Part shown: positions 1 to 48,447 of the stretch, piece after piece
Layout of the letters: each line of letters opens with the position of its first letter
Numbering within the stretch: the first letter of the stretch is position 1
The notes under the pieces: generated by a model
The model's input: only the letters and a program-made list of their open reading frames with translations
Told to the model about the DNA's origin: nothing
Databases searched by the model: none
DNA from: a virus
Length of the DNA stretch: 64,000 nt
Direction: 5' to 3' (one strand)
UHGV virus genome: UHGV-0072281
Made by a program: the position numbers and the translations under genes

Positions 1-103
1 GGCAGCGGCTGCGCCTACCAATAGCTTCGGTTCTTTCGGTAGCTTTGGTGCTCCTGACAATATTTCCACCACAGGCGGTGTATTCGGCGCTTTCGGCGAG
101 TAA
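1..103 (+). CDS. 3' end of an upstream gene (partial) with an FG-repeat C-terminal tail
   Basis: Frame 2 is open from the window edge to TAA at 101-103. It reads AAAAPTNSFGSFGSFGAPDNISTTGGVFGAFGE, with 5 FG dipeptides in 33 aa. Confidence 0.6.
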   Translation, partial: AAAAPTNSFGSFGSFGAPDNISTTGGVFGAFGE

Positions 104-122
104 AAATATCAAGGATTAATAA

Positions 123-1502
123 ATGAAAATTATTGAATTCTATAAATCGTTTCTTAAATCACAAGGATTCGATTTCGAGAACGATTTGCTTACCCGTGAT
201 GACGGTGAGCCAGCAGAATTTACCTACAACAAAGTGAAGCGCCGCCTGGCGCTTCCAACGTCGGCAATGATTAAGAAAGGAATGGAAGATGACGACGGGC
301 GTGAATGTCAGGCATTCCATCCTCTCTGTGAATCTGTGCTGGCCGGTGAATCGGGCACTATCCGTTTCTTGAAGAAATCCATCAATGCGAATTTGTTCAT
401 TCGTTCCTTTGCGTTGATTGACGCTATTCTGGAAACGGCTGCCAGCGGTAAAGCAATTCGTTCTGCGGCGTACAAGAAGTTCTTAACGGAACAGATTTGT
501 GAAGGGATGAAAGATCCGACGTTTGACGATCGTTTGGTAAAATCCTGGGAAGCAGTTAAACAATACGTTTATGGCTTATTGGAGCGCGATAAAAAGCACA
601 AAGTTACCCAGCTCTTTATTGCATCTGATTTAGTTATCGACGGTGTGAAGTTTAACCGTGTGGCTAATTATCGCCATATGTTCGAAGAAGAATCCTTAGA
701 CGGTACAGCAATGTACTTCTCGGTGAAGCTTCAACGTAAACAGGATAAGGTGATTATTCATCGCCTGCTGACCACTGTGTTCGGTTGGTATCCAAGCGTC
801 ACCGGTTCTAACGATTCCCGTCCGTACTTCGGGTCGTTAGCACGCGGTTGGGCACAGTACGTGGTAAACTACAATAACGTAGTGAAAGGGCTACGTGACC
901 ACACGCCACTGCGTCCGTTAGACGATGAATGGATTTCACAGCTGGACAACATGGAGATTTACGATAATGTCATTCAGACCTTGCCGTATAACACCGGTCC
1001 ACGTTCAGACAATCCTGAGCGTGATACCAGTGCCCGTGAGTTCAGAATTGACAGATCGTCGGCAACGGAACAGATCCCGACGAAGAAGGCGTCTGATGCG
1101 GATAAACCGAACCTGGACGATCCGGTAGAGTTCTTCCGTGCGCGTAAACAACGGATGGCTCCAACGAACAGCTTCGGTAATCTTTCTCCAGCAATGCAGC
1201 GTTTTGTGGAAGAACACAACACGACTAACCTGGCTGGTACAGGAATGGTAGGACGGATTTCTGTAGTAGATGCTTTCGGTGGCGAGCGTAAGAACAGCGG
1301 TTTTGGTGACGTAGGTGGATTCGGTCAACCGAACTCGTTGTCGAATACGTTTGGTGGTGGGCACTCTTTTGGCGGGGGTTCATCATTCGGAGGCAGCTCT
1401 TTCGGCAGCCAGCCTCAGTTTGGTTCGTCTAGCGGATTTGGTAGTAGTACAGGCAACCCATTTACCAGTGCTTCTACGAGTCCGTTTAAGAGCTCGTACT
1501 AA
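123..1502 (+). CDS. hypothetical protein: N-terminal region of about 345 aa plus an FG-repeat, Gly/Ser-rich tail of about 115 aa
   Basis: 459-aa ORF with AAGGA upstream of the ATG. The tail carries 10 FG dipeptides and is followed by a strong hairpin terminator. Confidence 0.85.
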   Translation: MKIIEFYKSFLKSQGFDFENDLLTRDDGEPAEFTYNKVKRRLALPTSAMIKKGMEDDDGRECQAFHPLCESVLAGESGTIRFLKKSINANLFIRSFALIDAILETAASGKAIRSAAYKKFLTEQICEGMKDPTFDDRLVKSWEAVKQYVYGLLERDKKHKVTQLFIASDLVIDGVKFNRVANYRHMFEEESLDGTAMYFSVKLQRKQDKVIIHRLLTTVFGWYPSVTGSNDSRPYFGSLARGWAQYVVNYNNVVKGLRDHTPLRPLDDEWISQLDNMEIYDNVIQTLPYNTGPRSDNPERDTSAREFRIDRSSATEQIPTKKASDADKPNLDDPVEFFRARKQRMAPTNSFGNLSPAMQRFVEEHNTTNLAGTGMVGRISVVDAFGGERKNSGFGDVGGFGQPNSLSNTFGGGHSFGGGSSFGGSSFGSQPQFGSSSGFGSSTGNPFTSASTSPFKSSY

Positions 1503-1924: not shown

Positions 1925-4165
1925 ATGAAAACGCCAGTTGAGCTATTGAGCAGCGTCGCTGACCGTGAAGTCAATATCGCACAGGTATCAGGTGCAAGGG
2001 CATCGATGGTAGGTAACCATATGAAGTCCTCGGTCCCGATTGACCATCCTGAGCCGTCACCTCACTTTACGGGCGCAGATACCAATTACCACGATTTTCT
2101 GTTTAACGATATTGTGGAAGACAGTGGGAGCATCTGTCATTACACAACTAAGGAAGGTAGACAACGTCGTGCAACGTTTACCCGTTATGGTCGTCGTGGG
2201 GATTCCCGTGCGCTGGAACACGCGATATTCTTCCGTCGTGCAGAATGCCGTATTCCGGGCAAAACAATGATAGACGTTATCGAGATTAACTTTTATACTA
2301 ACCACGATAACGTGTTCTCTTCTGAGAAATGGGAATCACCAAAACTGCGTAGTTTGTTACGTGGTGAAACCGACCAGTTAGAAAAGGATGAAATCCTGAC
2401 GACGATGCCGTGCATGGTGGATGGTGAATTCGCAGACAGTGTGGTGCTGCCGACGGTTACCATCTCACACCCAGACATTATCGAGGATTCCTACACGATT
2501 TCCGAAGAAGCGGCACAGAAGCTTCACGGGTATGGGTTGAAGGTTATCGAGAAAACGTTGCGTGAAGACGAATTCTTACTGGATACCTACGGCTATAACG
2601 ATCCCGAGGGGAATCGTGTACCGCGCTATTTCCCAGACGTGGGTGAAGCGATTCGTGATGACGGGTTAGTTATCGCTTCTCGTCGTTTCGATGACCTGTA
2701 CGCAGCGATTGATGCAACCTTAGGGGAAACTCAACACGTTTCTCCGTTCTTCGATAGCTGTGATTACGTGGATGCCGATCCGATACACTATAAAGCACGT
2801 TTGGAAAACAACCACGAACTGATGGAACGTAGCGGAACGCGCATTGTTGATATTCAGGTTTGGCGTGATGAAACGTCGTGCGGTAATGGAACGAATAACA
2901 TTAACTGTACTGAAGAGAACAAACGTGAGCTTGACAAATACGCATTGGCGTTAAAGGACTACTACAATGCGATTGTTCGCTTCTATTTCTCCGTGTCGAG
3001 AGATAAAAACGTTATCTGGTCTCCCAAAGCGTGTGTGTTGCTGGAGAAAGCTTTTGCATCCGAAACGTACGAAGTCTACGCAGAGTTTCGTGAAGAAATT
3101 CGCGGGGTGATTGAAGATGCAATTCGTCGTGGCGAATACGGTAAAGAGAACGTAAGTCAACAGATTATCTCCAAATTGACTTCACCTGTTCAGCGTGGAT
3201 TAAGCGATCCCATCAATACGTACACAATTCGTATCGCGGTACGTTATCCGATCCCGGTGACGGTGTCTTCTAAGATTACCGACCGTTCGGGTACGAAAGG
3301 GATTGTGGGTCGTGTACTGCCAGTTGAACAGATGCCAATTAACGAGTTCGGCGAACGTGTTCACGTACTACGTTCAATGAACGCCGTAATTCGTCGTTCT
3401 ACCTACGCCGCGCTGTTCCACATGTATTGGTCAGCAGCATCTGAACAGCTGAAGATGCGTCTTAAACCGATGCTGGATGAAGGACGCATTGGTGAGTGTT
3501 GGGAAATCCTGATGGACTACCTTTCACGCTATAATCCAGAATGGGCGAACACGTTACAGGCTACGCATCCTACGGAGGATTTGCAGCGAGAACTCTTTAA
3601 AGAGATTTACGATTTCACCATCCGCATTTACCTACCTCACGAACTTGATGACACTCCGGTGGAAATCAGTGAACGTTTAGGTGAGTTTAAACCCCGTAAG
3701 TCGAAACTGCTTATTACCAATTACGATGGTAAACAGGAATGGACAAAAGACGAGTTTTACGTGGGTGGTGTAGAAACATTACGGCTTGATAAAACGGGAC
3801 GTGAATTCTCAAGTATTTCGTCGATGTACCTGAACTACCTGGGCACGATCGATGCGTCTAACCAAGGACGTGGTTCGTATCCGGTAAACTATAAAACGCT
3901 AAAATGGGCTGGTCCTTCGGAAGAACGACTATTAGCGGGTTATGGTCCAGGTAACTACGAAGAGGTTCACGATAGGGCAAATAACCCTGCTGTGCATCGA
4001 GAGATTTTAGTAGGGCTGTACCGATCTCAAACTCCTTCCAATCCGGGCGTACTGGTAGACCGGAATAAGCTCCCATTAGGAGATTCGCAGATTGACAGAA
4101 TGATGAAAAACATTCACAGCTGCGAAGGGTTTGAATTGGTGAAAATGAAAAGGGGCGAAGAATAA
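1925..4165 (+). CDS. RNA polymerase beta-subunit-like protein, C-terminal portion (split phage RNAP)
   Basis: By eye, IIEDSYTISEEAAQK resembles the bacterial beta N-x-EDS motif. KITDRSGTKGIVGRVLPVEQMP...VHVLRSMNAVIRRST aligns with GDKxAGRHGNKGVxSxxxPxEDMP...DIVLNPLGVPSRMN. Confidence 0.8.
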   Translation: MKTPVELLSSVADREVNIAQVSGARASMVGNHMKSSVPIDHPEPSPHFTGADTNYHDFLFNDIVEDSGSICHYTTKEGRQRRATFTRYGRRGDSRALEHAIFFRRAECRIPGKTMIDVIEINFYTNHDNVFSSEKWESPKLRSLLRGETDQLEKDEILTTMPCMVDGEFADSVVLPTVTISHPDIIEDSYTISEEAAQKLHGYGLKVIEKTLREDEFLLDTYGYNDPEGNRVPRYFPDVGEAIRDDGLVIASRRFDDLYAAIDATLGETQHVSPFFDSCDYVDADPIHYKARLENNHELMERSGTRIVDIQVWRDETSCGNGTNNINCTEENKRELDKYALALKDYYNAIVRFYFSVSRDKNVIWSPKACVLLEKAFASETYEVYAEFREEIRGVIEDAIRRGEYGKENVSQQIISKLTSPVQRGLSDPINTYTIRIAVRYPIPVTVSSKITDRSGTKGIVGRVLPVEQMPINEFGERVHVLRSMNAVIRRSTYAALFHMYWSAASEQLKMRLKPMLDEGRIGECWEILMDYLSRYNPEWANTLQATHPTEDLQRELFKEIYDFTIRIYLPHELDDTPVEISERLGEFKPRKSKLLITNYDGKQEWTKDEFYVGGVETLRLDKTGREFSSISSMYLNYLGTIDASNQGRGSYPVNYKTLKWAGPSEERLLAGYGPGNYEEVHDRANNPAVHREILVGLYRSQTPSNPGVLVDRNKLPLGDSQIDRMMKNIHSCEGFELVKMKRGEE

Positions 4166-6264
4166 TGAAGGCGACTCCGGTTCACGTAAGAGACTTGTGC
4201 AAGTTGAATTCGGATCAGGTGTGGCTACTTCGGGGCGTTTACGACGTGTCCTTCGACGATGGGGTCACGTTGAGAATGTCTGGTCGACACATTAAGTTGA
4301 GCTGGCCGTATTGGGGATTAACCCAGTTTTATCCCCAAGTGCCAATCTCGTCGAACATGGCGTATAAGCATGGCGACACGGCAACTGACGATGCGCATCT
4401 GCGCTTTATGTCGTTGGCAGCTGTAGCAGCACGTAAGGCCGGAGTGGATCTGGCCGATACCCGTTACCTGTTATCACAGCACGTTTATGCGAATGCGTTT
4501 AACCTGACGGTGAAAAACCTGTTGTCGTATTGTGTTACCATTGACTACGATACGATGATGGAGATTTATCAGCATGAAAACTTCAAGCTGATTATCGAAT
4601 GGTCTAAACTCTATCCGACGGGTTACGATGAGGAGGGTAACGATAAGGTAGAAGAAGCCTATCAGCTCATTGAGAAAATCTTCAAAGATCCGAGACTCTC
4701 AAACAACCCAGTCGTCATGTCTGTGTTAGACCGCACACTGAAAATGGATCAGATTCTCCAGGCTTACATTCGTGGTAAGACTTCAGAGATTGACTCCCGT
4801 GTGTACTCTAACCAGGTATGGGAAGGTTTCTTCACCGGCTTGCATTCTGTTATCAGTCGACTGAAAGAAGCAGGTGCGACATCGCGTTCTCACCTGTATA
4901 ACACCGACAAGATTGCAGACGCAGAGTACGCATCGCGTAAGTTGCAGTTAGCGGCTAACGTGCTGATGTTCTTCGATTACGAAGACTGTGGTACACATCA
5001 CGTACACAGACACACCTTTACGAATTCGCCGTTGGAAGAAGCGAAATTCAAAGCGATGAAAGGAATGCGTTATCGCTTCGAAGGTACTGGTGGTCCGTGG
5101 TTACGATTCGAAGATGGTGAGTTTGAGAAAGTCTTGAACAAACCTATCGAGTTCCGTACCGCGATGTGTTGCAAAGGAATGTCACGACAGACTATCTGTG
5201 CAACGTGTATGGGTGACTTGATTTATAACCTGTCACCTGGCACATCGCCGGGTCACCTTGCGTCAACCGCAATCTCGGAAAAGGGTACTCAAGGTATTCT
5301 GTCGACGAAACACCTTGACTTCCTGCGTTATCTGCTGAACTTGGTCTTGTCGCCAAGAATGCGTGATTATCTCACGGAGTATAAGCACAACTCCGTTAAA
5401 GGGATTAGTTTACTGGAGAAGCCGCAATACGGTACCTGGGATGAATACCAACTAGTAATTTCGGATGAAGTGTATTCAGAGATTAGCCAGATTGCGTATC
5501 ATGAAGACCTGGACGATATTGATGAAACGGCACTCCCGGAAATTAATGACCTTACGTTTGTTCGTTTAGATGCAGAAGGGAATATACTGGCAGAAGATCC
5601 GATTGACGTTCGAATGGGCGTGTGCGGTAACTTCTCTAAGTCGTTCCTTCGCTTCTTCTTGAAGAATCGTGATAAGCTCGTATTCCCCAGCAAGAAAACG
5701 GTGCGTGTTCCGCTAAAAGGATGGAAACCGTCCTGGCCGATCCTAATTTATACGAATCGGTCTGAATCTATGGCGGAGTTTGTAGCAGGGTTGGAATTGA
5801 TTTTACGTTCGGTAGCATCGGACAAGTCAGATAACTTCGAACAGTTCTCGGACGAGTCAATGCGTTTGAGCAAGAAGAGTGGTAAGGTTAAACCGATTAC
5901 CCTCGTTCAGATGCGTGGTGCCACGGAGAAACAATGTACTCATGCGTTGTTCTACGTGTTCAAATATATCCAACGTAAGCTCAAAGGGATTCCGATGACG
6001 CACATCGCGATTATGTTGGCAATCTCTCGTGTTGAGTCACCTACTAACCCATTCCCGGCAGTAGGGTTTGACAGTGAGGATGCTGATGCCGCAGAAGGAA
6101 AACGTTTCGAAGATCACAATACGCTGATTGCGATGCGTTCTGCAATTCCGATGTTGTTGTTTGAGGGACAACAGAAGAACTTGGACAACGTACGTTTCTA
6201 TACGTCACGTAAACGTCCTGCTTCGTTGTACGACAATTCTGTCGCGGCAACGATTATTGAGTAA
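4165..6264 (+). CDS. RNA polymerase beta-prime-like protein, C-terminal portion (bridge helix to trigger loop and beyond)
   Basis: YEDCGTHH, CATCMGD and ISEKGTQGILSTKHLDF align by eye with beta-prime EDDCGT, CxxCYG and GEPGTQLTMRTFH. The ATG overlaps the stop of the beta-like gene (ATAATG). Confidence 0.75.
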   Translation: MKATPVHVRDLCKLNSDQVWLLRGVYDVSFDDGVTLRMSGRHIKLSWPYWGLTQFYPQVPISSNMAYKHGDTATDDAHLRFMSLAAVAARKAGVDLADTRYLLSQHVYANAFNLTVKNLLSYCVTIDYDTMMEIYQHENFKLIIEWSKLYPTGYDEEGNDKVEEAYQLIEKIFKDPRLSNNPVVMSVLDRTLKMDQILQAYIRGKTSEIDSRVYSNQVWEGFFTGLHSVISRLKEAGATSRSHLYNTDKIADAEYASRKLQLAANVLMFFDYEDCGTHHVHRHTFTNSPLEEAKFKAMKGMRYRFEGTGGPWLRFEDGEFEKVLNKPIEFRTAMCCKGMSRQTICATCMGDLIYNLSPGTSPGHLASTAISEKGTQGILSTKHLDFLRYLLNLVLSPRMRDYLTEYKHNSVKGISLLEKPQYGTWDEYQLVISDEVYSEISQIAYHEDLDDIDETALPEINDLTFVRLDAEGNILAEDPIDVRMGVCGNFSKSFLRFFLKNRDKLVFPSKKTVRVPLKGWKPSWPILIYTNRSESMAEFVAGLELILRSVASDKSDNFEQFSDESMRLSKKSGKVKPITLVQMRGATEKQCTHALFYVFKYIQRKLKGIPMTHIAIMLAISRVESPTNPFPAVGFDSEDADAAEGKRFEDHNTLIAMRSAIPMLLFEGQQKNLDNVRFYTSRKRPASLYDNSVAATIIE

Positions 6265-45021: not shown

Positions 45022-46797
45022 GTGTTTAAAGATGCAATCAGAAAGCTTAAAGAGGATGGCAAAATAGTACCCTTTAACCGAGCGATTGCGGAAGGTGTCG
45101 GTTATACCCAGGCCAAAGATGGTATACACGAACGTGTTCAGATTATCTTGAAACGTGAGCTGGATTATCATCCTGTTGATAATCCGCGTGTTCCTGAAGG
45201 GCTGGCTGTATTAGGTGTACGGTTAATGTCGCCGTTTGAAACGTTCATCTATAAGCTGTCTCGTTCTGAGAGCAGCAGAATGGATAGACGCCGTGGTGTG
45301 ATGTCCATTGCGAACACCGATGCGTATATGGTCATGTCAACATTCCGTATTCCAGGAGATTCTCGACCGATCTCAAGACCGATTAACTTACCCTTTATCC
45401 GTCGTGGTGGTTTAATGAACTATTACGGTACGACGTATCACGTTGCGCCGGTTATTCACCAGCCAGGTATCTGTCGCGAACACGGTGGGGTATTTGTTAA
45501 CTTTGACTTTAAACGTAAAGCCTCGTTGAAATTCTGTAAGCAACCTGTCCGTGTGTTAGTCAACGGTAAAAAAGAGGAGCTATTCTTACCAGGAACCAAA
45601 AACCTGTTCAAAGCGAAGAACGCAACACATCCCGATACTGACGAGAAACCGTTAATGTATTGGTTGTTCGGACGTTACGGATTTAAAGAAGCGATTAAAC
45701 GCTATACTGGTGTTGACGTAGAAATTTATCCATCGTTTAAGATCCCAGAACTCGATCTCAACGAGAAAGTTGTAATCAGTTCCGGTGAATCGAAATATAA
45801 CCGTTCGATAATGTACGCGGTTGTCGTACCCGCAGAAGCATTGCCGAACGTGGATAAAGTCGGTTGGGATCAAAACGAGCATTTATTGCTGGCTGCAATT
45901 GCTGCGTTCTTCAAAGCTGCTCACTACTATTGCAGTAAACAATCTATTAAGAACGGTAACGTCACACCGCTGCCGCCGCTGTTTACCGCAATTAACGAGT
46001 TAGCGATGGAAGACGATATTGCTAATCTGAACTCTGCTCCGATTTGGCGTGAGATTCTGGGAAGAAGTATCGTAGGACTGAAACCTTCCGATATTGAGTT
46101 AGCGCACAGTATGGCGAAACACTATACTGAATGTGATCGCTATGTTAACTCAACGTTCCGTGCAGAACTGAAGATGACCGATCCCGACATTCCAGACGAT
46201 ATGGATATGTTTGATTTCTTCTGGTATGCAACGAAACTGATGGTACGTACCCGTTTGACCAAACAGGGCGACATTCCGTCGATGTACGGAAAACGTTTAA
46301 CCGTAACTGACTACTTACTGTTAGGTGACCGTGGGTTTACACCAACGGTAGCGGCTATTCGTTTCCAGCTGGGACAAACGGAGAACCGTTCGCCGGAATC
46401 CTGCGCGAATATGATTCGTAGCGCACTCAATAAAGAAATTGTCACGAGTCTGGTACTGCGTAATATCACCGGTAATGGCGGTGTAAGTTATTTTAACGCA
46501 TCAACAGAATCCATGGTGTTAGGAGTATCCACACACGCGATCAGTCAAACTGAAACGGAATCTAAACGCAACAGCAAGGGCGGTAAAACGGTTAACCTTA
46601 ACGACCGTACGAAACACGCTTCTGCATCGCATCTGGAGTGTGGTAACGTTTATTATATTCCGAAATCATCCCCGTTCAAATGGGGTGTCCTTAACCCGTA
46701 TATGAAAACTAACCGTCAGTTAGTGATGGTTCGTAATCCAAAACTTGACGAGTTAATTCAAGCAACTGAAGAAGACATTGCGAAGATTGGCCGTTAA
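45022..46797 (+). CDS. RNA polymerase beta-subunit-like protein, N-terminal portion
   Basis: By eye, PFIRRGGLMNYYGTTYHVAPVIHQPGICREHGGVFVNFDFKRK...LMYWLFGRYGF aligns with E. coli beta [23 protein letters not shown]...GSWLDFEFDPKD...IILRALNY. The GTG start is preceded by TAAGGAG. Confidence 0.55.
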   Translation: MFKDAIRKLKEDGKIVPFNRAIAEGVGYTQAKDGIHERVQIILKRELDYHPVDNPRVPEGLAVLGVRLMSPFETFIYKLSRSESSRMDRRRGVMSIANTDAYMVMSTFRIPGDSRPISRPINLPFIRRGGLMNYYGTTYHVAPVIHQPGICREHGGVFVNFDFKRKASLKFCKQPVRVLVNGKKEELFLPGTKNLFKAKNATHPDTDEKPLMYWLFGRYGFKEAIKRYTGVDVEIYPSFKIPELDLNEKVVISSGESKYNRSIMYAVVVPAEALPNVDKVGWDQNEHLLLAAIAAFFKAAHYYCSKQSIKNGNVTPLPPLFTAINELAMEDDIANLNSAPIWREILGRSIVGLKPSDIELAHSMAKHYTECDRYVNSTFRAELKMTDPDIPDDMDMFDFFWYATKLMVRTRLTKQGDIPSMYGKRLTVTDYLLLGDRGFTPTVAAIRFQLGQTENRSPESCANMIRSALNKEIVTSLVLRNITGNGGVSYFNASTESMVLGVSTHAISQTETESKRNSKGGKTVNLNDRTKHASASHLECGNVYYIPKSSPFKWGVLNPYMKTNRQLVMVRNPKLDELIQATEEDIAKIGR

Positions 46798-46836: not shown

Positions 46837-48447
46837 ATGGCAAGCTACAGCGAAACTCGTGAATTTATCTTGAAAGTTGTAATGGCTAAACAGGATCAGC
46901 TGTTGAACTATCTCGTCGATGCGATGAATGCGAAAGGGATAAAAGAAGATCCGTTTGTTAATGCAGCGTGCATTGTAGGTAACTGGTATCTGCAAAACCG
47001 TCGTCCTAACGACCAGACTAACGTTGCGGTTATCGAAACCTTTAAGGCAACGCTGTATAGCCGTCTGTTAGGTTTAGGCCTGACGCCGTTGCAGCCGGAC
47101 ATTCATAGCGCGTTAGAGAAAGCGTTTGTGCTGGCGAATCAACTTGCAGAAGAAGCTCGTCGTGCCGGGCAGGGTGGATTCGGTGTACGTACTGAACCAG
47201 TTAACTTCGGTATTCAGAATTCACAGAATGCGCAACCAACCGCACCGATTCAGGGTTCTTCTGTACCAATGGCCAGCTATACTCCGGCAGGTGTAACAGT
47301 GCAACCTGTACAACCCGCTCCGGTATTCGGCGGTACTCCGCAACCTCAACCTCAGCCGCAATCGCAGCCTGCTATTATTCAGCCGGCTGTTCCGCAGGAA
47401 GTGATGAACAAAAGCAAGCCTGTGGATATGAATAAGGAAACGATGGATGATATCATTCAACGTGCTAACCGTCCTCACCATGACATTTTGCGGGTAGAAA
47501 TTGTGGAAGACTATTTAGATCACGAGCTGAAAGAAAAGATTCAGCAAAACGTTGTTTCGCCGAAAGAAGCTAACACACGCGTCAAGAATTCTGTGTATGC
47601 AGAACATCGTGACTGGGGTGATAAGGTTAGTGAACTGGTTGAAGATAACGACAAACAATATTGCTCGTATGACGATGCGGGTATCATGGTGAAAGTCGAA
47701 AGCGAATATCGTCTGTATCCGATGGCACAGACTGAAACTTCTGCGGTGTATCTCCAGGAGTTTTATAGTTCGGTTCGCCAGATTATCGACGATCTCGATA
47801 CCGTACGTGATATTGACGATATTGAAAAGCTGATGGAGCGTGTTTCTAATGACGTCTTCAGACTGCGTGACCTTGCACAACGTTTGTTAATGTACTTCCT
47901 CACCAAATCTGATGAGAATGAAACGTATCGTAGCGAATGTTCAATGTTTACTCGTCGTTTCGTTGCAACATTAACCGTGCTGGTTCACAACGCTATCTCC
48001 GTGGCATCTGCTTACGGTAAAGACGTTCCGGGTACGAAATTCGTACAATTGGAATGCTGCCTGGATGACATGACCTACTTTAAAGAGACAGTGTATGGTC
48101 GTACCATCGGTGAAAACGGCGTGAGCAAGTCTGCGGATTATTTCCGTGAAATGTTCCTGCTAATCGCACGTTCTCTGCGTAAGCTGCACATTCGTCTGAC
48201 CTGCGATAATAAAGCCATTGAACTGTCTCAGGTAACGTACACGATTTCTCTGCAAGCAGATTATCAATCCGCTAACGATCGTCATATCGTGGAAATCTCT
48301 TCGTTTGGTAATAGCTTCGAACCGATTGTTTCAATCTACGAAGTCATTAACCAGAAAGCACCAGAAGCGTTCATTAAACTTAAGACCCCGTCTCACGTTT
48401 ATTCGCTACTGAGCACAGGTGACGTTACTGCACCGGTTCGTTATTAA
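46837..48447 (+). CDS. hypothetical protein (536 aa) with a Pro/Gln-rich linker
   Basis: ORF with TAGGAGAA upstream. It contains a PQPQPQPQSQP low-complexity segment. Confidence 0.75.
   Translation: MASYSETREFILKVVMAKQDQLLNYLVDAMNAKGIKEDPFVNAACIVGNWYLQNRRPNDQTNVAVIETFKATLYSRLLGLGLTPLQPDIHSALEKAFVLANQLAEEARRAGQGGFGVRTEPVNFGIQNSQNAQPTAPIQGSSVPMASYTPAGVTVQPVQPAPVFGGTPQPQPQPQSQPAIIQPAVPQEVMNKSKPVDMNKETMDDIIQRANRPHHDILRVEIVEDYLDHELKEKIQQNVVSPKEANTRVKNSVYAEHRDWGDKVSELVEDNDKQYCSYDDAGIMVKVESEYRLYPMAQTETSAVYLQEFYSSVRQIIDDLDTVRDIDDIEKLMERVSNDVFRLRDLAQRLLMYFLTKSDENETYRSECSMFTRRFVATLTVLVHNAISVASAYGKDVPGTKFVQLECCLDDMTYFKETVYGRTIGENGVSKSADYFREMFLLIARSLRKLHIRLTCDNKAIELSQVTYTISLQADYQSANDRHIVEISSFGNSFEPIVSIYEVINQKAPEAFIKLKTPSHVYSLLSTGDVTAPVRY

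Follow-up and report, generated by a model that had tools for sequence, protein, structure and literature searches.

Predicted disordered tails of a PicA/Imp1 ortholog and its gp70-family neighbor as candidate tethers at the shell of a nucleus-forming phage

The crossing of the closed chimallin lattice by folded proteins is the main open question on the phage nucleus: the import factor PicA (Imp1) selects cargo, and the makeup of the physical gate is still open. This question is raised by the first bases of a 64,000-nucleotide stretch of the UHGV virus genome UHGV-0072281, referred to here as the window. Two adjacent genes, one truncated and ending at position 103 and the other complete at positions 123 to 1502, encode proteins whose C-terminal tails are rich in phenylalanine-glycine (FG) dipeptides. 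An initial annotation, made from the sequence alone, had likened this composition to that of eukaryotic nucleoporin FG domains and proposed that the pair might form a cohesive or selective phase. Are these tails a nucleoporin-like gate, or is FG one form of something else? We assign the two proteins to the PicA/Imp1 and phiKZ gp70 families, and we put at about an even chance the reading we favor, in which their tails co-evolve as multivalent tethers and anchor the two proteins at a single site of the chimallin shell.

The source of the window is a nucleus-forming, phiKZ-like chimallivirus, as the initial annotation had supposed from the RNA polymerase genes: the DNA is approximately 72% identical to that of Erwinia phage Asesino, a characterized nucleus-forming chimallivirus, is related to the SPN3US-like phages, and opens within a conserved chimallivirus gene block. 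The truncated upstream gene lies at positions 2 to 103 on the + strand and contributes only its last 33 codons and stop codon (101-103) to the window. Frame 2 of positions 2-100 reads AAAAPTNSFGSFGSFGAPDNISTTGGVFGAFGE, and this translation bears out the five FG in 33 aa that had been reported for the end of the gene. Metagenome contigs of the same phage, as long as 226 kb, gave the complete upstream protein of 567 aa (L002:8277-9980); the contigs are 99% identical to the window over the 200-nt overlap compared. By hhalign, the family of this protein matches that of phiKZ gp69, PhiPA3 gp63 and 201phi2-1 gp125 (97% probability, E 1.1e-10, 362 columns). The Asesino ortholog matches PHROG 3141 (E 1.5e-159), and the gene sits between a gp68-type RNA polymerase subunit gene and a gp70-type gene. 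Enustun et al. 2023 list SPN3US YP_009153325 and YP_009153326 as homologs of PhiPA3 gp63 and gp64 (PMC10643120), and these are exactly the two genes of our locus L010. Because profile homology, synteny and the published SPN3US homolog all point the same way, we assign the truncated gene as a PicA/Imp1 ortholog.

PicA/Imp1 is an essential factor that selects cargo for import into the phage nucleus and forms a punctum on the shell, one per nucleus. The punctum and the requirement for cargo import have been shown for the phiKZ, PhiPA3 and Goslar proteins, and cargo is recognized by surfaces of folded PicA. In AlphaFold2 models, which were run with family alignments, the folded part of PicA extends to about residue 530, and residues 531-567 are predicted to be disordered, with a predicted local distance difference test (pLDDT) score of about 34. 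A sequence search of the PDB with the Asesino PicA ortholog and with the PicA profile returned no match.

The complete gene at 123-1502 (+ strand, 459 aa) is preceded by a Shine-Dalgarno-like AAGGA at 111-115 on the same strand, 7 nt 5' of the ATG at 123, as read from the sequence and alignment. A match to PHROG 3520 (E 5.9e-130), tblastn and synteny place its product in the family of phiKZ gp70, PhiPA3 gp64 and SPN3US YP_009153326. The tblastn matches of this open reading frame (ORF) fall in PhiPA3 gp064 (E 2e-13), 201phi2-1 gp126, phiKZ gp070 (about 1e-6 for phiKZ-type gp070) and Simmy50 gp250. The idea that ORF 123-1502 is itself PicA was ruled out, as the match coordinates lie in gp064, gp126 and gp070, and the bodies of PicA and gp70 were also ruled out as paralogs (hhalign 0.3%). 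As orthologs of chimallivirus core genes that have already been described, the two genes are not new in themselves. Green fluorescent protein fusions of PhiPA3 gp63 and gp64 localize to the shell, and both proteins are early, are not found in virions, and were co-purified with ChmB. In transposon tables for phiKZ, orf70 retains 1 insertion site after trimming, the essential neighbors 068, 069 and 071 retain 0 sites, and a nearby dispensable gene of 171 nt retains three; the gp70-family neighbor of PicA is probably essential.

The AlphaFold2 model of the gp70-family protein has three parts, all encoded on the + strand: a folded alpha/beta N-terminal domain (aa 1-285, nt 123-977, pLDDT about 90), a disordered linker (aa 286-385, nt 978-1277, pLDDT 35-64) in which residues 334-344, 356-365 and 381-384 form short helices, and a G/S-rich FG-repeat tail (aa 386-459, nt 1278-1499, pLDDT <40). 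The repeat proper carries eight FG and reads GGERKNSGFGDVGGFGQPNSLSNTFGGGHSFGGGSSFGGSSFGSQPQFGSSSGFGSSTGNPFTSASTSPFKSSY. The disorder expected of both tails is thus predicted by the models, for aa 386-459 of this ORF and aa 531-567 of PicA. No relative of the N-domain was found outside chimalliviruses in the libraries searched, Pfam returned no domain in the ORF or in 27 homologs, and a PDB sequence search returned nothing for the ORF or for phiKZ gp70. The linker holds the heptapeptide APTNSFG (nt 1155-1175), followed by a partly conserved helical motif, LSPAMQ...ISVVDAFGG (nt 1176-1277), that aligns across relatives as L[ST]P..Q ... SL..A.G. This second segment (aa 352-385, LSPAMQRFVEEHNTTNLAGTGMVGRISVVDAFGG) is modeled as short helices at a pLDDT of about 60, and its motif core is conserved in the SPN3US-like clade. 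It bears a weak likeness to the peripheral-subunit-binding domain of 2-oxoacid dehydrogenase E2 (PDB 1w4h, E 0.87); with this single PDB match and no Pfam support in the 27 homologs, the presence of such a domain at aa 353-383 is unproven.

Counted on the translation, the gp70-family protein contains 12 FG, of which 10 fall in its last 115 aa. The initial annotation had treated these 115 aa as a single charge-poor repeat tail; the count and the scarcity of charge stand, but the first 40 aa belong to the partly conserved linker with its short helices. The only charged residues in the last 68 aa are D and K, so that a run of almost 70 aa contains just two charges, and five charged residues occur in the last 74 aa. 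Within-tail shuffles predict 2.75 FG in the last 80 aa of this protein, where 9 were observed (p about 1e-4), and 1.05 in the last 33 aa of PicA, where 5 were observed (p about 1.5e-4). The FG, roughly one in every 8 aa, are separated by G/S/N/Q/T spacers. Elsewhere in the window, all ORF segments of 80 aa or more stay at or below 3 FG per 60 aa. Both tails are short, at about 35 aa in PicA and about 75 aa in the gp70-family protein. The PicA tail opens with the same APTNSFG heptapeptide (nt 11-31, + strand) that occurs in the gp70-family linker, and by our reading of the alignment a motif resembling P-[ST]-N-[SGA]-F recurs at the same PicA tail position in part of the SPN3US-like clade. The codons for APTNSFG differ between the two genes at 4 synonymous sites, and the longest DNA stretch that the genes have in common is 12 nt. 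Of the shared or duplicated module proposed earlier, the short common peptide motif is real, and duplication fails at the DNA level.

Across the gp70 family, the tail is retained and FG is not. A profile search of 1.84 billion representatives returned 478 clusters at E <= 1e-10; in the best 150 of these 478 clusters, the match runs through the N-domain and nearly all members have 100-250 further residues. The tails were charge-poor and of low complexity in 131 of 184 members with tails examined. When these 131 tails were pooled, G (13.6%), Q (13.6%) and P (12.3%) were the leading residues, followed by A, N and S, and the main hydrophobic residue was Y, M, F, L or W. Another 39 of the 184 (about 21%) have tails rich in R/D/E/S. 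At least four FG were found in only 7 of 142 gp70-family representatives. Named phages show the range of tail types: FG in this phage and LFG/FG in Phabio; LG or LLGG in Asesino, SPN3US and Wellington; NSLL(D) in Huxley and ChrisDB; NPF in Derbicus and Phobos; M/Q/P-rich tails in phiKZ, PhiPA3 and Proteus phage 10; a Q/M/P/Y-rich tail in Simmy50; and WG in FLC9. FG therefore fails as a conserved signature, the orthologs using LG, NSLLD, NPF, M/Q/P, WG, Y/P/Q or R/D in its place, a result that the initial annotation had named in advance as one that would count against its proposal. The tails of the representatives P0088, P0100, P0113 and P0131, among others, are built of R/D, R/E or R/S repeats, for example DRDRDRDRGSRDRDRYDRDDRR. 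At locus L029, which belongs to a lineage with a charged gp70 tail, PicA also ends in a charged sequence, ...DRENDLDERSWRD.

The rate of change can be seen in the relative P0002, which is 79% identical to the gp70-family protein of this phage overall; the N-domains are 93% identical and the tails 39%, and the P0002 tail retains F-based stickers. Homologs keep the tail, which has diverged far more than the N-domain, but neither the FG dipeptide nor its spacing is conserved. The gp70 tail, retained in nearly all members while its sequence diverges fast, is therefore conserved as a type, and FG is the form that it takes in one lineage.

PicA and gp70 tails from the same genome share 1.63 4-mers on average versus 0.45 for tails from mismatched genomes, in a permutation test that ignores phylogeny (p about 1e-4). 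In this phage, PTNSFG and SFG repeats occur in both proteins. Asesino, SPN3US and SNUABM_29 have GGLG-type repeats in both. In Huxley and ChrisDB, PicA contains GNSLLD internally and NSLLD at its C-terminus, and gp70 carries NSLL/SLLD motifs. Derbicus and Phobos have F-based motifs in both proteins. The PicA proteins of PhiPA3, 201phi2-1 and Phabio end in ...LGLL, and the corresponding gp70 proteins end in ...GLGLL (PhiPA3), ...GMGLI (201phi2-1) and ...GLGLI (Phabio). Duplication or gene conversion as the source of this likeness was ruled out, as no DNA match longer than 13 nt between the tail-coding regions was present in six genomes. Base composition as the cause of the sticker switch was likewise ruled out: GC content spans 46-52% whether a phage is F-type or L-type, and the folded parts do not vary in F/L usage. 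On the sequence evidence, within the SPN3US-like clade a change of motif in one of the two tails goes with a change in the other.

The same motifs extend to the shell protein. The C-terminal tail of chimallin reads ...GNGPNSFGSDYNMSFASGNYSPN in this phage, where it contains GPNSFGSDY, and ...SDYSLGVSIGSLDLGL in Asesino, where it is LG-rich. Across the 74 kb scanned, NSFG occurs only three times: in the chimallin tail, in the PicA tail and in the gp70-family linker. In other phages, chimallin tips such as ...SNFKL and ...NSFTL resemble the PicA tips ...GFKL and ...FTL and the gp70 tips ...GFKW and ...NFSF. Chimallin protomers bind one another by docking their terminal segments on adjacent protomers. 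The chimallin C-terminus of this phage lies outside the window, on a metagenome contig (L003:~340-414), and ends ...SGNGPNSFGSDYNMSFASGNYSPN.

These data are consistent with the following model. Each of the two proteins is predicted to consist of a folded body and a disordered C-terminal tail in which hydrophobic "stickers" are set between G/S/N/Q/T/P spacers; this lineage uses Phe with a following Gly as its sticker. The two tails would make multivalent, low-affinity contacts with a common site, with each other, or with both. As the chimallin C-terminal tail has the same motif dialect, the common site could be the groove of the chimallin lattice that takes chimallin's own C-terminal tail. ChmC, the third shell protein of the block, offers a precedent, as its disordered N/G-rich tail drives condensates. 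Tethering of this kind would hold the importer and its gp70-family neighbor side by side where import takes place on the shell, and FG would be the local spelling of the tether and not a conserved nucleoporin-type signal.

Several observations weigh against this model. Kokontis et al. found that in E. coli Imp1 pulls down gp67 but not gp70-FLAG; if "gp70-FLAG" denotes a C-terminal tag, the tag could mask the tip of the tail. About 21% of gp70-family tails are R/D-rich, and therefore no single chemical mechanism can serve the whole family. The independent switches of motif behind the 4-mer test are few, perhaps 3-5, and outside the SPN3US-like clade the sharing of motifs is not strong. In Agricanvirus-like phages and in phiKZ, PicA ends with little or no low-complexity tail and has 0 4-mers in common with gp70. 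The apparent likeness to the chimallin tail rests on short motifs, and a phmmer search of the PDB with Asesino chimallin returned no match onto which tail docking could be mapped.

The most durable alternative is that the tails are passive flexible linkers with a docking tip. As with SSB (single-stranded DNA-binding protein) tails or the chimallin C-terminal segment, they would be entropic spacers under neutral drift, with function residing in the folded domains and the last few residues. The huge variation in composition and the very fast divergence of the tails fit this explanation. So does the enrichment of particular tips: the last residue is hydrophobic in 64% of gp70-family members versus 32% for ORFs of the window, and many of the others end in Phi-x-R. 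Chimallin, PicA and gp70 homologs also often end in [FY]-x-[LWFM], as in ...NFKL, ...GFKL and ...GFKW. A passive spacer does not account for the occurrence of F followed by G far above the expectation from composition, which argues for selection on the dipeptide. Nor does it account for internal motifs that are common to both proteins of one genome and switch together, such as GNSLLD twice in PicA and again in gp70, or the SFG repeats. In addition, the tips found in this phage (AFGE, PFKSSY and NYSPN) do not fit the tip motif. We consider this explanation unlikely on balance.

The nucleoporin-like selective phase that the initial annotation proposed fares worse. Here the two FG tails, perhaps joined by the N/G-rich tail of ChmC, would build a cohesive meshwork or condensate; this would plug a gap in the chimallin lattice and admit only PicA-licensed cargo. 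Much about the locus invites this reading. The composition and spacing are like those of cohesive GLFG-type FG domains, the tails are predicted to be disordered and have almost no charge, and the proteins concerned are an import factor that makes one punctum per nucleus and its shell-associated neighbor. Phabio, a distant phage, and several metagenomic lineages have an independent FG/LFG-type gp70 tail. The disordered, N/G-rich tail of ChmC has been shown by experiment to drive condensates in vitro, and its N/G-rich and acidic regions have been described (PMC11077065). The ChmC/Imp6 homolog of this phage lies outside the window (213 aa, L002:5839-6480) and has an N/G/Y-rich end followed by ...APAPDSSFDDII.

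The case for a selective phase falters on scale and conservation. FG domains of nucleoporins span hundreds of residues and carry tens of FG, whereas the two tails here are about 35 and 75 aa with 5 and 8-9 FG and do not reach nucleoporin-scale length or valency. Most orthologs use other stickers, and about 21% of the family has highly charged tails. We know of no transport-receptor (karyopherin-like) analogue in these phages, and in PicA cargo recognition lies with folded surfaces. A nucleoporin-type FG domain is thus not supported, as the tails are disordered by prediction and have an excess of FG but fail on length and on conservation of the motif. We regard a selective phase as improbable, and we give equally little weight to its evolutionary form, in which the phage would have convergently evolved a nucleoporin-like plug at a single import site with a sticker chemistry that co-evolves as a private code of each lineage. 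The tails resemble cohesive FG domains in composition only.

A role in RNA handling has a slim chance. The gp70-family protein would act with ChmC in mRNA export or RNA chaperoning at the shell, and its tail would be a low-complexity domain of the RNA-granule type, with FG as one of its variants. ChmC, whose gene lies two genes upstream, binds RNA and binds Imp1 directly. RGG/FG-type tails are found in P0085 and P0091, many other tails are R/D- or R/S-rich, and there are weak fold matches resembling a dsRBD. The repeat part of this phage's tail has no arginines, and the Pfam and PDB searches gave no RNA-binding match. The remaining suggestion, a glycine-rich virion fiber segment or an SSB-type protein, draws on the glycine-rich tail and on the G/Q/P-rich linkers that SSB proteins also have, but it is excluded in practice and we give it almost no credence: homologs are early, shell-localized proteins that are absent from virion proteomes, the predicted N-domain has neither an OB fold nor a fiber-like fold, and the tail lacks both a collagen-like G-X-Y periodicity and the acidic tip of SSB.

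The genes around the pair agree with these assignments. The window starts within a conserved chimallivirus block consisting of gp68 (an RNA polymerase subunit), PicA/Imp1, the gp70 family, a small reverse ORF and the RNA polymerase beta subunits, and this gene order was repeated in 19 of 19 chimalliviruses inspected, as far as each region reaches. Asesino gp47, encoded immediately upstream of the Asesino PicA ortholog, matches phiKZ gp68 in PDB 7ogp_B (E 1.3e-9), the phiKZ gp68 chain of the solved non-virion RNA polymerase. The gp70 homolog and the non-virion RNA polymerase beta gene flank the small ORF (1538-1861, - strand, 107 aa, PHROG 3455), which runs on the opposite strand and has the same place in every related phage whose region extended there; the label "baseplate wedge protein" that this ORF carries in one record looks doubtful. 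The two RNA polymerase beta-type subunit genes at 1925-4165 and 4165-6264 (both on the + strand) match PHROG 3295 (E 1e-254) and PHROG 3015 (E 8e-222) and Pfam RNA_pol_Rpb2_6. These genes fix the synteny, and from gene order they are taken to be non-virion polymerase genes equivalent to phiKZ gp71-73 and gp74. On one metagenome contig of the same phage (L003:11800-14055), an RNA polymerase beta gene was called as fragments of 58 and 113 aa versus 746 aa, either through an assembly error or because the gene is truly disrupted. Elsewhere in the window, the only other low-complexity region resembling the two tails is a charge-poor, Q/P-rich stretch with three FG (aa ~105-190, nt ~47150-47400) in a 536-aa ORF at 46837-48447 (+ strand), which adjoins ORF 45022-46797.

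Our searches of the searchable literature found no mention of the low-complexity tail of gp70/gp64, of the PicA tail of the SPN3US-like clade, or of their concerted evolution. No paper was found that joins FG repeats with the phage nucleus, and the papers on PicA, on Imp1 and on the interaction network do not use the word "disordered". If the tether model is correct, co-evolving disordered tails link the importer PicA to its uncharacterized shell-associated neighbor, and terminal tails that act as shell "glue" may be a principle common to chimallin, PicA, gp70 and ChmC. Even if the tails are only tethers, a testable role is assigned to a core gene of unknown function.

The two proteins may be compared first with their own families. 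The PicA protein is orthologous to phiKZ gp69, PhiPA3 gp63 and Goslar gp174 and shares their folded body of about 530 aa. The families differ at the C-terminus: a low-complexity tail of 30-50 aa is found in the SPN3US-like clade, where it is of the FG type in this phage, Agricanvirus-like phages have a short tail or none, and PhiPA3 and 201phi2-1 have an N/Q/P/A-rich C-terminal stretch with DLGLL or NLGLL as its last residues. ORF 123-1502 shares with phiKZ gp70 its length, a folded N-domain of ~285 aa and a low-complexity tail, and with the wider gp70/gp64 family it differs in tail chemistry, with FG in this phage and other residues in its relatives.

Among other shell proteins, the segments at both the N- and the C-terminus of chimallin (ChmA) are likewise flexible tails with short hydrophobic motifs, and in the SPN3US-like clade the chimallin C-terminal tail shares its motif dialect with the PicA and gp70 tails; chimallin segments dock on protomers, whereas docking of the PicA and gp70 tails is only inferred. 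ChmC/Imp6 (phiKZ gp67, PhiPA3 gp61) resembles the pair in belonging to the same gene block, in its shell association and in having a disordered low-complexity C-terminal tail. It differs in its Whirly-fold RNA-binding body and in a tail that is N/G-rich with an acidic end and lacks hydrophobic sticker repeats; PhiPA3 ChmC ends in ...GFDDEIPNF. Bacterial SSB proteins also have a G/Q/P-rich disordered linker that ends in a short docking tip, typically the acidic DDDIPF, to which the ends of ChmC are similar. PicA and gp70 lack both the OB fold and this acidic tip, and the ChmC tail (...SSFDDII) is closer to SSB than theirs are. With the cohesive FG-nucleoporins of the GLFG type (Nup98/Nup100/Nup116), the phage tails have in common predicted disorder, repeated FG set among uncharged G/S/N/Q/T spacers, and a carrier protein that sits at the border of a compartment which holds the genome and imports proteins selectively. 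They differ from these in having no homology to them, in being about tenfold shorter, in an FG motif that is not conserved among orthologs, and in a barrier that is a closed protein lattice and not a membrane pore.

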